64,000 nt of DNA from assembly GCF_030013595.1 (NCBI RefSeq), contig NZ_CP122768.1; one strand, written 5' to 3'. The notes below the pieces were generated by a model that did not search any database, was not told the origin of the DNA, and saw only the letters and a program-made list of their open reading frames with translations. Both the position numbers and the translations under genes were made by a program. The DNA comes from Escherichia coli (GTDB lineage Bacteria; Pseudomonadota; Gammaproteobacteria; Enterobacterales; Enterobacteriaceae). This document shows, piece after piece, positions 6,450 through 41,666 of the stretch; position 1 is the first letter of the stretch; each line of letters starts with the position of its first letter.

Positions 6450-7583
6450 CTACATCGGCAACGTTTTCAACAATGCAAACGCCTCTTTCATCCGATCCTC
6501 ACTGACCACAAAGGCGCGAAGCTGGTCAGCATCGTCAACGCCGCGCGCCACCATTCCCTGGCGTTCGGTATTAATTTGCCAGCGTAAATCCTGACGCTGG
6601 GTTTCGCCTGCCAGATGCAGCGGTAATTCCGGCGTTTTGATTTTCACCAGCATCGCCGGGAGTTTCAGTGGCGTGTTATTGCCGAGAAGATTTTTTGCCA
6701 GCACCATCGCGCTAAGTTGAATCGGCTGCAGGAACGGCAGTACCTGACCGTTAATTTCCGCGCAATCGCCCAGAGCGTAAATATCGGCATTACTGGTTTG
6801 CAGATAACTATCGACGCAAACGCCGCGATTAATCGTCAGCCCGGCGCGTCGTGCCAGGGCGGTTTCCGGGCGCAGCCCGGTGGCGGCAATTACCGCATCC
6901 ACTTCGATGCTGCGCTGGCGGTCCAGCGTTGCCAGAATGCCAGAATCCGTTTTTTCCAGCCCCTGCAACTGAGATTTTAACAGCAGATGAACGCCCATCT
7001 CCGTCAACCGATGCTGCAAGCGGCTGCTTACTTCCGGTGGCATTAACGACGCCAGAATACTGGCAGCGTTGTCGATTAGCGTGACCGCTTTGCCTGCACG
7101 ACAAAAATCCATCGCCAGTTCGCTACCAATCAAGCCACCGCCAACAATCAACACGCGTCGGGCATCCCGCAGTTGCGTTTCACAGGCGCGATACTCTTGC
7201 TGACTATTTAACGTCAGCATTAACTCACGCCCGGGCACTGGCGGGACAAAGGCGCTGGCACCGGTTGCCAGCACTAACTTGTCGTATTGCCACTGATTAT
7301 TCTGACTTTTCACCACATGGGCTTCGGCATCGATATCCGTTACCCAGGTGTGCGGAAACAGGTGCAGATTAAACTGCTCGGCAAATTCACCCGCCGTCTG
7401 GCGGGTAAGGTCATCGGCACGTTGCCTCTGGCTGATAACATGGCTGAGGTCCGGTTTGTTGTACTCATCCATGCTGTCGGCGGCAATCAGGGTTAATGGA
7501 ATACAGGCGTCCTGTTTGCGAATATTTTTCACCAGTTGGCGGGCGGCGAAGCCCGAACCAATGATCACAATGCCGTTGCTCAT
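6450..7583 (-). CDS. norW: NADH:flavorubredoxin reductase NorW
   Basis: 377 aa, FAD/NAD Rossmann motif ([10 protein letters not shown]); start overlaps norV stop (ATGA). Confidence 0.9.
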
Positions 7584-9019
7584 TTTGCCTCCGATGCCAG
7601 TTCGTCAAAGACGTCTTTGCCAAGGGAGCATTCCGGGCACAGGAAGTTATCCGGAACTTCACTCCACGGCGTTCCTGGCGCAACGTCCTGCATTGGCTCG
7701 CCTTTTGCCGGATCGTAAATCCACTGGCAGACGCTGCACTGCATCCGTGGGCCGAGGTCAGCCGTCGTGGTGGCAGAGGTTTCTTCTTTAACCACCGTAT
7801 TCACCGTGCTCTGCGGCAGCGGCGCGAGCGCCCACTGACGGGCGATTTCGCGACCGTGTTCACGACATAGCTCCAGAGCGTCCTGGTCCGGTCGCCATTT
7901 GGCTTTCAGGCTAAGCGACATTTCGAAACCCGCATCCTGCAGGCGTGTGGAAAGACGATCCACCGCACCGCCGCTCCAGCCATGAGAGCCGAAAGCACTG
8001 GCGCGTTTGTTACGAAAGCGTAAACCAGTCATCTCCTCCACCAGCCCGGCGATTTTTGGCATCATCACGTTATTCATCGTCGAAGTGCCGACCAGCACGC
8101 CTTTTGAGCGGAAGACATTGGTCAGGATTTCGTTTTTATCGCTTCGGGCGACGTTGAAAATTTTCACCGCTACGCGTGGGTCGGTTTCCGCAATACCCTG
8201 GGCTATAGCATCGGCCATCATGCGGGTATTATTCGACATGGTGTCGTAGAAAATGGTGATTCTGTCTTCCTGATAATCCGCCGCCCATTTCAGGTACAGC
8301 TCGACAATTTGCGTCGGGTTATCGCGCCATACCACGCCGTGAGAGGTCGCTATCATATCGACTGGTAAGTTAAAGCCCAGGATCTCGGTAATTTTCGGCG
8401 TTACCAGGCGGCTGAACGGCGTCAGGATATTGGCGTAATAACGCTGGCACTGCTCGAAAAGCTCCGTCTGATCCACTTCATCGTTGAACAGATGCTCGTC
8501 GCAGTAGTGCTGACCGAAAGCATCGTTACTGAACAGTACCGCGTCGCCTGTCAGGTAAGTCATCATGCTGTCCGGCCAGTGCAGCATTGGCGTTTCGACA
8601 AAAATGAGCTGTTTGCCGTTGCCGATATCCAGCGTGTCGCCAGTTTTCACCACATTAAAATTCCACTCCGGATGATGGTGATGACCATTTATCGAGTCGA
8701 TAGCGTTGGCAGTACAGTAGATCGGCGTATCGGGAATTTGTGCCATCAGTTCGGTCAGCGCCCCGGCGTGGTCCTCTTCTGCATGGTTAATCACGATGTA
8801 ATCGATATCCGCCAGATCGATTTCATTACGCAGGTTCTGCACAAATTCGCGGCTGAATTTATGGTCAACGGTGTCGATCAGCACGTTTTTTTCTTCGCGG
8901 ATGAGGTAGCTGTTGTAGCTGCTGCCGCGCAGCGTTTTATATTCCGTGCCGTGAAAATCACGCACTTCCCAGTCACGTTGACCAACCCAATGAATGTTAT
9001 TTTTCACCACAATAGACAT
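7580..9019 (-). CDS. norV: Anaerobic nitric oxide reductase flavorubredoxin NorV
   Basis: 479 aa; metallo-beta-lactamase-like and flavodoxin domains plus C-terminal rubredoxin CxxC pairs. Confidence 0.9.
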
Positions 9020-9066
9020 AGCAACCTCAATTTATTCAGCGTGTTCTAAAAAGATGTCTTGCTAAT

Positions 9067-9082
9067 TGCAGATTGCGTGCCA
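9067..9082 (-). promoter_or_regulatory. Sigma-54 (-24/-12) promoter of norVW
   Basis: Minus-strand reading TGGCACgcaatcTGCA (GG-N10-GC) about 50 bp upstream of norV ATG. Confidence 0.6.
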
Positions 9083-9137
9083 GTTTTTTATCTGATTGTT
9101 TTTACTCTATAAATAAAATTATGCTCATTAATGAATA

Positions 9138-9193
9138 GTCAAAATGACTATCAATAAAATGGTCGATATGACAATATCTATAGTCAAATTGAC
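9138..9193. promoter_or_regulatory. Three NorR enhancer sites (GT-N7-AC): GTCAAAATGAC, GTCGATATGAC, GTCAAATTGAC
   Basis: Three spaced inverted-repeat sites in the norR-norV intergenic region, matching the known NorR consensus. Confidence 0.65.
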
Positions 9194-9205
9194 AGTGAGG
9201 CAAAG

Positions 9206-10720
9206 ATGAGTTTTTCCGTTGATGTGCTGGCGAATATCGCCATCGAATTGCAGCGTGGGATTGGTCATCAGGATCGTTTTCAGCGCCTGATCACCACGCT
9301 GCGTCAGGTGCTGGAGTGCGATGCGTCTGCGTTGCTACGCTACGACTCGCGGCAGTTTATTCCGCTTGCCATCGACGGGCTGGCAAAGGATGTACTCGGT
9401 AGACGCTTTGCGCTGGAAGGGCATCCACGGCTGGAAGCGATTGCCCGCGCCGGGGACGTGGTGCGCTTTCCCGCAGACAGCGAATTGCCCGATCCCTATG
9501 ACGGTTTGATTCCCGGGCAGGAGAGTCTGAAGGTTCACGCCTGCGTTGGTCTGCCATTGTTTGCCGGGCAAAACCTGATCGGCGCATTGACGCTCGACGG
9601 GATGCAACCCGATCAGTTCGATGTTTTCAGCGACGAAGAGTTACGCCTGATTGCCGCGCTGGCGGCGGGAGCGTTAAGCAATGCGTTGCTGATTGAGCAA
9701 CTGGAAAGCCAGAATATGCTGCCGGGCGATGCCGCGCCGTTTGAAGCGGTGAAACAGACGCAGATGATTGGCTTGTCGCCAGGCATGACGCAATTGAAAA
9801 AAGAGATTGAGATTGTGGCGGCGTCCGATCTCAACGTCCTGATCAGCGGTGAGACGGGAACCGGTAAGGAGCTGGTGGCGAAAGCGATTCATGAAGCCTC
9901 GCCACGGGCGGTGAATCCGCTGGTCTATCTCAACTGTGCCGCACTGCCGGAAAGTGTGGCGGAAAGTGAACTGTTCGGGCATGTGAAAGGGGCGTTTACT
10001 GGCGCTATCAGTAACCGCAGCGGGAAGTTTGAAATGGCGGATAACGGCACACTGTTTCTCGATGAGATCGGCGAGTTGTCGTTGGCATTGCAGGCCAAGT
10101 TGCTGCGAGTGTTGCAGTATGGCGATATTCAGCGTGTTGGCGATGACCGCAGTTTGCGGGTCGATGTGCGCGTGCTGGCGGCGACTAACCGTGACTTACG
10201 GGAAGAGGTACTGGCAGGGCGATTTCGCGCCGATTTGTTTCATCGCCTGAGCGTGTTTCCACTTTCAGTGCCGCCGCTGCGTGAGCGGGGCGATGATGTC
10301 ATTCTGCTGGCGGGGTATTTCTGCGAGCAGTGTCGTTTGCGGCTGGGGCTCTCCCGCGTGGTATTAAGTGCCGGAGCGCGAAATTTACTGCAACACTACA
10401 GTTTTCCGGGAAACGTGCGCGAACTGGAACATGCTATTCATCGGGCGGTAGTACTGTCGAGAGCCACCCGCAGCGGCGATGAAGTGATTCTTGAGGCGCA
10501 ACATTTTGCTTTTCCTGAGGTGACGTTGCCGCCGCCAGAAGCAGCGGCGGTGCCCGTTGTTAAGCAAAATCTGCGTGAAGCGACAGAAGCGTTCCAGCGT
10601 GAAACCATTCGCCAGGCACTGGCACAAAATCATCACAACTGGGCTGCCTGCGCGCGAATGCTGGAAACTGACGTCGCCAACCTGCATCGGCTGGCGAAAC
10701 GTCTGGGATTGAAGGATTAA
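9206..10720 (+). CDS. norR: Sigma-54-dependent NO-responsive activator NorR
   Basis: GAF domain, AAA+ sigma-54 interaction domain ([14 protein letters not shown]), C-terminal HTH; 504 aa. Confidence 0.9.
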
Positions 10721-26999: not shown

Positions 27000-27024
27000 G
27001 AATAAATATCCTCCGGCATAGCCG
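27000..27024 (+). terminator. Rho-independent terminator of luxS
   Basis: CCTCCGGC-ata-GCCGGAGG hairpin followed by TTTTT. Confidence 0.7.
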
Positions 27025-27029
27025 GAGGT

Positions 27030-27708
27030 TTTTCAAATGCGCCTATAAGGCTCTCTTACCAGCCGCGCCCTAACAGGCGCACACGATCTGACATTTGCAT
27101 CCAACTTCGTTACTTACGGCCCGTAAACGGGCTGCCCGGATAGGGAATCGATAACTGATCTCCCATTTTATCCTCTTCAAGCTGGTGCTTTATGTAATCC
27201 TGTATCTTCGCCGTGTTCTTACCCACTGTATCGACGTAGTACCCTCTGCACCAGAACTCCCTGTTCCTGTATTTGAATTTCAAATCACCAAACTGCTCGT
27301 AAAGCATCAGACTGCTTTTCCCTTTCAGATATCCCATAAACCCGGATACGCTCATTTTGGGCGGGATCTCCACAAGCATATGGATATGATCTGCACAGCA
27401 TTCAGCTTCCAGAATCCGTACGCTTTTCCACTCACACAGCTTTCTCAAAATACTGCCTATTGCTCTACGCTTCTCTCTGTAGAACACCTGTCTTCGGTAT
27501 TTTGGCGCAAAAACTATGTGATATTTACAGTTCCATCGGGTGTGCGCTAAGCTCTTTTCGTTCCCCATTGGGACCCCCTTTTGATTTCTTGTTTGACACT
27601 TGCAGTTGCCAGACCGCAAGGTGTTTTAACAAATCAAAAGGGGTTTTAATAACTGGCTCAAAGCTGAAAGCTTTCCGGAACCCCCAGCCTAGCTGGGGGT
27701 TTTCTGTG
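27030..27708 (-). mobile_element. IS200-family insertion sequence (IS200/IS605 family); ends approximate
   Basis: HUH tnpA ORF; left end (high coordinates) has two hairpins typical of IS200: cccccagc..gctggggg terminator-like hairpin and a long stem-loop occluding the tnpA RBS; lies between convergent luxS and emrB terminators. Confidence 0.8.
27110..27568 (-). CDS. tnpA: IS200 transposase TnpA (HUH single-strand transposase)
   Basis: 152 aa from MGNEKSLAHTRWNCKYHIVFAPKYRRQ; HxH motif (HIHMLV) and catalytic Tyr (RGYYVDT). Confidence 0.9.
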   Translation of the reverse strand: MGNEKSLAHTRWNCKYHIVFAPKYRRQVFYREKRRAIGSILRKLCEWKSVRILEAECCADHIHMLVEIPPKMSVSGFMGYLKGKSSLMLYEQFGDLKFKYRNREFWCRGYYVDTVGKNTAKIQDYIKHQLEEDKMGDQLSIPYPGSPFTGRK

Positions 27709-27711
27709 CAC

Positions 27712-27738
27712 AAAAAAGCCAGTTCAAATGAACTGGCT
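27712..27738 (-). terminator. Rho-independent terminator of emrRAB
   Basis: Minus-strand hairpin GCCAGTTCA-ttt-GAACTGGC followed by TTTTTT, immediately after emrB stop. Confidence 0.7.
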
Positions 27739-41450: not shown

Positions 41451-41632
41451 GATTCGTATTTCCGTTTAAAATGAAGATACGGCGCGATGATACGCGTCGG
41501 GTTGTCTCTCTGTTGATACAGAGATACTAGATGTAGTTGAAAAAAGATTCAACCACACAATATATAGCAAACAGTGGTCGAAATTACCCTGGGTATGAGC
41601 GTGACGGGGTAGGGGGATTTTTGTGATTCAGC

Positions 41633-41666
41633 AGACAAAAAGAAACCCCGAAGCCAGGCTTCGGGG
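41633..41666 (-). terminator. Rho-independent terminator of ygaM
   Basis: Minus-strand hairpin ACCCCGAAGCC-tg-GCTTCGGGGT followed by TTTCTTTTT. Confidence 0.7.

Follow-up and report, generated by a model that had tools for sequence, protein, structure and literature searches.

The norR–norVW divergent control region of an Escherichia coli chromosome: NorR enhancer sites, sigma-54 promoter and allele variation

The norR–norV locus and its products

The region described here is the 186 bp spacer at 9020–9205 of the window, by which we mean the whole 64,000-nucleotide stretch of E. coli chromosome that was analysed. As read from the sequence of 8900–9320 together with the list of open reading frames, the spacer is bounded by the divergent genes norV (7580–9019, minus strand), with its ATG at 9019, and norR (9206–10720, plus strand), with its ATG at 9206, and the end of norV shares 4 nt with norW (6450–7583, minus strand). 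The gene order common to the K-12 and MEI003 annotations is gutQ–norR and, divergently, norV–norW–hypF. A megablast search with 8920–9305 gave matches in 5425 of 5426 complete E. coli genomes and, among the matches listed, all are flanked by norV and norR as annotated in RefSeq. The open reading frames, the NCBIfam equivalog matches and the RefSeq annotation of identical DNA thus agree in positioning the NorR enhancer array between divergent norR and norV.

The three proteins are intact. NorV, the flavorubredoxin (479 residues), scores 1047 bits against NCBIfam NF003954 (cut-off 711) and differs from the K-12 protein at two amino acids, with no internal stop or deletion; some O157:H7 lineages carry a deleted norV. 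NorW, the NADH:flavorubredoxin reductase (377 residues), scores 685 bits against NF003437 (cut-off 392) and is full length, with eight substitutions relative to K-12. The expected Pfam domains are present in both. NorR, the NO-sensing sigma-54 enhancer-binding protein (504 residues), scores 825 bits against NF003451 (cut-off 476) in a match covering residues 2–503, and contains the Pfam domains GAF, Sigma54_activat and AAA_lid_14; the Pfam helix–turn–helix model is absent from its matches at E ≤ 0.001, and its C-terminal 58 residues (447–504) are identical to those of K-12. R75, R81, D96, D99, C113 and D131 are present, as are the GAFTGA motif at 262, Walker A at 215 and Walker B at 286. R75, D96, D99, C113 and D131, which we take to be the iron-centre residues of Tucker 2008, are invariant in an alignment of 76 orthologues.

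Relative to K-12, NorR carries the six substitutions T177A, C316S, Q380L, A418S, T443P and V446A, three of which shift the protein towards the orthologue consensus. The only unusual one is A418S, since 75 of the 76 orthologues have alanine there; codon 418 (10457–10459 of the window) falls where the AAA+ lid domain ends. The same protein, WP_000010730.1, is annotated in at least two unrelated E. coli strains. As judged from these frames, the norRVW module of the strain looks complete.

Other features were noted elsewhere in the window. A copy of IS200C (27006–27712; transposase frame 27110–27619, minus strand) is inserted in the luxS–emrB interval, where it is missing in MEI003 and present at the same position in about 1950 complete E. 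coli genomes. At 41565–41639, in the ygaM–nrdH interval, about 1.9 kb of MEI003 is missing from the window; in MEI003 this segment contains genes of the PLP-dependent aminotransferase and carboxymuconolactone decarboxylase families.

NorR enhancer sites and the sigma-54 promoter

Three GT-N7-AC inverted repeats are found in the spacer and, read on the norV (minus) strand, are GTCAATTTGAC at 9193–9183 (site 3, nearest norR), GTCATATCGAC at 9172–9162 (site 2) and GTCATTTTGAC at 9148–9138 (site 1, promoter-proximal). All three cores also fit the stricter pattern GTC-N5-GAC and are identical to those of K-12, with a centre-to-centre distance of 21 bp from site 3 to site 2 and 24 bp from site 2 to site 1, about two helical turns in each case. 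The numbering was fixed by the oligonucleotides printed by Tucker et al. (2010; PMC2831303), which comprise a wild-type 21-mer of site 1 and GG-N7-CC mutagenic primers for sites 1–3. The primers map onto the three cores, site 3 matching the Site3 primer when its GG..CC change is undone, and the 21-mer, GATAGTCATTTTGACTACTCA, maps to 9152–9132 with a single flank mismatch at 9135; beyond the designed mutations, the published oligonucleotides depart from the window only at 9135 and 9156.

In the K-12 system, binding of NorR protein to these sites has been reported, with the highest affinity at site 1, and induction of norV–lacZ is lost on mutation of any single site (PMC2831303). NorR contacts G residues at −137 to −84 relative to the norV start (PMC2831303), a 53 nt range; in the window, the first G of site 3 and the G of GAC in site 1 are equally far apart. 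The three sites of the window allele are predicted to be occupied by NorR in the same way.

The single motif carries little weight: GTC-N5-GAC occurs 17 times in the window, with 10.4 expected, and a lone match is uninformative. The phased triple is found only once in the window, and 100 shuffles that preserve dinucleotides gave no instance of it. A fourth GTC-N5-GAC, GTCACGTTGAC at 8972–8982, falls in norV codons 13–16 and was rejected as an operator; the motif is retained by only 16 of 120 orthologous genes and is thus a coincidence of coding.

The sigma-54 promoter of norVW, TGGCACGCAATCTGCA, lies on the norV strand at 9082–9067, 63 nt ahead of the ATG, within the range of offsets from −53 to −69 at orthologous loci. 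The element reads TGGCAC-N5-CTGCA (literally TGGCAC-N6-TGCA), and its GG (9081–9080) and GC (9069–9068) are separated by ten nucleotides, the correct spacing for sigma-54; relative to the consensus TGGCAC-N5-TTGCW there is one departure, C for T at −15. It is identical in K-12 and in eight other Escherichia sequences, save for one strain with a G to A change between the two elements. The first-pass annotation had recognized the promoter and had written it as TGGCAC-N5-TGCA; the element is real, and the formula is a notation slip that leaves the observation sound. The formula taken literally has no match in the spacer, and its sole match in the window, at 56545–56559, is one base short from GG to GC for sigma-54. 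That match lies 134 bp downstream of a tRNA with anticodon CAT (56336–56411), which from its position is probably ileY; the surrounding region, without a clear open reading frame, may be an island junction.

As with the NorR motif, one copy is of limited weight, a single TGGCAC-N6-TGCA arising in 23 of 100 shuffles. Published evidence comes from genomic SELEX, in which a peak of RpoN holoenzyme falls within the K-12 norR/norV spacer (PMC8743547), from Salmonella, in which norV is sigma-54 dependent (PMC3844500), and from the RpoN dependence of the norV promoter (Gardner 2003, as cited in PMC2831303). The element of the window allele is predicted to be bound by RpoN holoenzyme and its transcription to be RpoN dependent.

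The interval between enhancers and promoter contains an A/T-rich stretch (9083–9137), and within it the candidate IHF site is placed at 9101–9089 on the norV strand, where AAACAATCAGATA has two mismatches to the consensus WATCAANNNNTTR. This block upstream of TGGCAC agrees with the binding of IHF between the transcription start and the enhancers, as given in PMC2831303 with citation of Tucker 2004. Among 108 orthologous promoters, a match with at most one mismatch is found at a fixed offset of −18/−19 from TGGCAC in 72 (the E. coli copy having two mismatches) and anywhere in the 60 nt upstream in 90, versus 13% of shuffles. Over the whole window the consensus with at most one mismatch is at chance level (59 matches versus 58 expected), and the only such match in the spacer, at 9149–9161, was set aside, as it lies between NorR sites 1 and 2, away from the reported IHF zone.

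Since the 53 nt contact span matches the sites, +1 of norV would lie twelve nucleotides downstream of the GC element. From the published G contacts, the norV transcription start (9056–9054, norV strand) would thus fall near 9056 (± 2 nt), and the leader would be some 37 nt long. A Shine–Dalgarno sequence, GAGG, is read at 9028–9025 on the same strand, 5 nt ahead of the ATG, and forms a conserved block in the phylogenetic footprint.

Additional regulatory features were sought in the same DNA. An Rfam scan of 8800–9400 at E ≤ 1 returned zero RNA families and thus no support for a riboswitch or small RNA within the spacer, and nothing relevant was found in PMC11227560 on further regulators acting at the norV promoter. 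A single sigma-70 match on the norV strand, TTGTCA-16-GATAGT at 9174–9147, is weak, occurs at the frequency seen in shuffles and was rejected. As the sigma-70 promoter scan of the spacer found no consensus-grade norR promoter, both the norR promoter and norR autoregulation stay at the level of what we infer.

Conservation among species and variation within E. coli

Orthologous loci were collected, with one genome per species, by a degenerate back-translation of NorV residues 11–24, a choice independent of the regulatory sites. The scan yielded at least 120 norV loci, of which 116 extended 250 nt or more upstream of the ATG and, with the window itself, gave 117 upstream regions. The phased triple GT-N7-AC (spacings of 19–21 and 23–25 bp) was found in 107 of these 117 regions, at the same distance from norV as in the window, and at a frequency of 8.5e-5 in 23,400 shuffled controls; 56 of the 107 arrays have the 21/24 spacing of the window. 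The pattern TGG(C/T)-N8-TG at 40–90 nt ahead of the ATG was found in 108 of the 117 regions, versus a frequency of 0.012 in 23,400 controls, and the triple site and the sigma-54-like element occur together in 103. Upstream DNA was sufficient at 84 loci, and at 77 of them the divergent open reading frame is NorR-like, with 58–99% identity.

The arrangement of triple GT-N7-AC sites upstream of a sigma-54 promoter, with divergent norR adjoining, is shared by the NorR promoters of norV in Salmonella, Enterobacter, Klebsiella, Aeromonas and Pseudomonas, and hmp of Pseudomonas aeruginosa and norAB of Ralstonia eutropha are also NorR-regulated with the same arrangement (PMC2831303). In other genera the spacings are 20/25 or 19/25 bp, and the enhancer-to-promoter distance is 54–55 bp, whereas it is 67 bp in the window. 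When the 56 sequences that share the 21/24 spacing were aligned with MAFFT, the footprint showed conservation peaks at the three sites, the IHF-like block upstream of TGGCAC, the −24/−12 element and the Shine–Dalgarno sequence, and the positions at which the window and K-12 differ sit in variable columns.

Two further classes of norV upstream region were observed. In 30 of the 108 norV promoters the −12 element is TTGAT and not (C/T)TGCA, the GC dinucleotide being missing and TGGCAC and the triple sites being kept; these elements, 50–70 nt before the norV ATG, occur in Enterobacter, Klebsiella, Lelliottia, Morganella and other genera (loci L004, L008, L011, L016, L017, L018, L020, L033, L038, L065, L066 and others). 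In Photobacterium and relatives (L023, L026, L045, L077 and L084) the 100 nt before the norV ATG are without NorR sites and without a sigma-54 element, and a divergent norR was not found at L023, L045 and L077, the three loci with sufficient flank. These upstream regions bear palindromes such as TGCATTTTAAATGCA together with a conserved ATAACATGCATTCAAAATACAAC, which suggests that Photobacterium-type norV may be under another NO-responsive repressor, possibly one of NsrR type.

Within E. coli, alignment of the spacer with that of K-12 MG1655 gives 183 of 186 identical bases, with substitutions at 9156, 9135 and 9125, all outside the NorR cores, the −24/−12 element, the leader and the Shine–Dalgarno sequence. 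The first-pass annotation had proposed comparison with the published norV promoter, and this comparison leaves the NorR cores and the −24/−12 element unchanged. The substitution at 9156, T on the norV strand, lies between sites 1 and 2. That at 9135, T on the norV strand and C in K-12, lies inside the published 21 bp site-1 oligonucleotide, 3 bp past the core, so that the 21-mer exists in two versions, ending in GACTATTCA and GACTACTCA, of which the window and K-12 have one each. With T at 9135 the inverted repeat of site 1 lengthens from TAGTC-N5-GACTA to ATAGTC-N5-GACTAT, 17 bp. In a sample of E. coli alleles, T at 9156 and T at 9135 on the norV strand are rare and A at 9125 is common. Only four of the 5426 complete genomes have the exact spacer allele, one more differing at one base and the rest at two or more; MEI003 has the same spacer and is about 98.6% identical to the window across 48 kb. 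The 56 bp enhancer of K-12, by comparison, is exact in 3750 genomes, and a further 1673 have it at 95–99% identity (one or two mismatches).

A more drastic variant was observed in E. coli AF3, a blood-culture isolate (NZ_OZ547117.1; L128, 1601–1741), in which the norR–norV spacer is only 141 bp. A stretch of 45 bp between the GTCA motifs of sites 3 and 1 (9149–9193 of the window) is deleted and one NorR site is left, in what looks like a recombination between repeated operators. Because induction requires all three sites (PMC2831303), norVW of AF3 is predicted to be blind to NorR.

Regulation at the norR–norV spacer

The region is almost certainly the native norR–norVW divergent control region of E. 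coli, acting as published, and no evidence contradicts this reading; in agreement with the first-pass annotation, which had called it not novel, it is the characterised K-12 operator, already known and ordinary. Locus and gene order are the same as in norR–norVW of K-12 (Hutchings 2002; Gardner 2003; Tucker 2004; Justino 2005; Tucker 2010, PMC2831303), and the 186 bp length of the spacer, the cores, the 21/24 bp spacing, the −24/−12 element, the leader and the Shine–Dalgarno sequence are all shared. The departures are three bases in the spacer and six residues in NorR, two in NorV and eight in NorW.

It is very improbable that this rare allele is functionally altered, with the changes at 9135 and 9156 or A418S of NorR shifting NorR affinity, cooperativity or ATPase output, so that induction of norVW would be weaker or stronger than in K-12. 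The rarity of the exact spacer, the position of 9135 within the site-1 fragment, the extended site-1 palindrome and the near-invariance of position 418 speak for such an alteration, as does the contribution of flanking DNA to the NorR complex stressed in PMC2831303. However, 9135 and 9156 are poorly conserved and the states of the window are common in other genera: among the 56 footprint sequences, 9135 is C in 33, T in 17 and A in six, and 9156 is T in 32, A in 19 and C in five. A functional effect of 9135 is unlikely precisely because T is common there in other species (17 of 56). Moreover, the change from alanine to serine is conservative, the same NorR occurs in unrelated strains, and other NorR substitutions move to the orthologue consensus. 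There is thus only a slender chance that T at 9135, T at 9156 and A418S together could retune the NO threshold or the norVW output in this lineage, in which case the allele would be a natural regulatory variant of a textbook switch; the rare spacer allele is probably without functional consequence, as far as can be judged from comparison of the sequences. That the motifs are chance matches in A/T-rich intergenic DNA, with no NorR/sigma-54 switch at all, has a vanishingly small probability: GT-N7-AC does fix only four bases, and neither GTC-N5-GAC, barely enriched, nor the single promoter match stands out from chance, but this reading is already refuted by the shuffles of the phased triple, by conservation at orthologous loci, by the position of the array between annotated norV and norR, and by its coincidence, in the mapping of the published oligonucleotides, with experimentally mutated and footprinted sites.

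On the reading of the spacer as the native control region, three NorR dimers would occupy the three phased GT-N7-AC inverted repeats, centred at about −87, −111 and −132 from the norV start, and the DNA-bound NorR would form a hexameric AAA+ ring. Bending of the A/T-rich enhancer–promoter DNA by IHF would allow the ring to reach the sigma-54 RNA polymerase, which would wait as a closed complex on TGGCAC-N5-CTGCA. Binding of NO to the non-haem iron of the NorR GAF domain would lift the repression of the ATPase, and ATP hydrolysis would then open the promoter for transcription of norVW, the flavorubredoxin and its reductase converting NO to N2O. As the same three sites lie just upstream of the norR start, NorR occupancy would probably also limit the transcription of norR. 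The contribution of this study to the scheme is the presence, position, spacing and conservation of the cis elements and the intact frames of NorR, NorV and NorW, whereas the binding of NorR and IHF, the need for all three sites and the sensing of NO are taken from the literature (PMC2831303).

Upstream activator sites, a spacer that would be bent by IHF and a −24/−12 promoter opened by an AAA+ ATPase are shared with NtrC at glnAp2 and glnHp2, NifA at nifH and XylR at Pu. Unlike these systems, NorR needs all three sites and a DNA-dependent assembly of the hexamer, and its signal is NO at the GAF-domain iron and not phosphorylation (PMC2831303).

The first-pass annotation had concluded that the NO-detoxification switch is intact, which holds for the cis elements and for NorR, NorV and NorW but, as read from this DNA, is not extendable to rpoN and ihfA/ihfB, which lie outside the window. 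It had also placed the three NorR sites in the 186 bp spacer and had offered the region as a positive control for the reading of sites by eye; a characterised region was indeed recovered at its exact coordinates. The norR–norV spacer matters here only as such a control. A single GT-N7-AC or a single −24/−12 match is near chance in 64 kb, and the promoter formula taken literally would point to the wrong, misspaced site at 56545. The lesson is that the phased triple, the gene context and conservation discriminate, and not the individual four-base or ten-base motifs.
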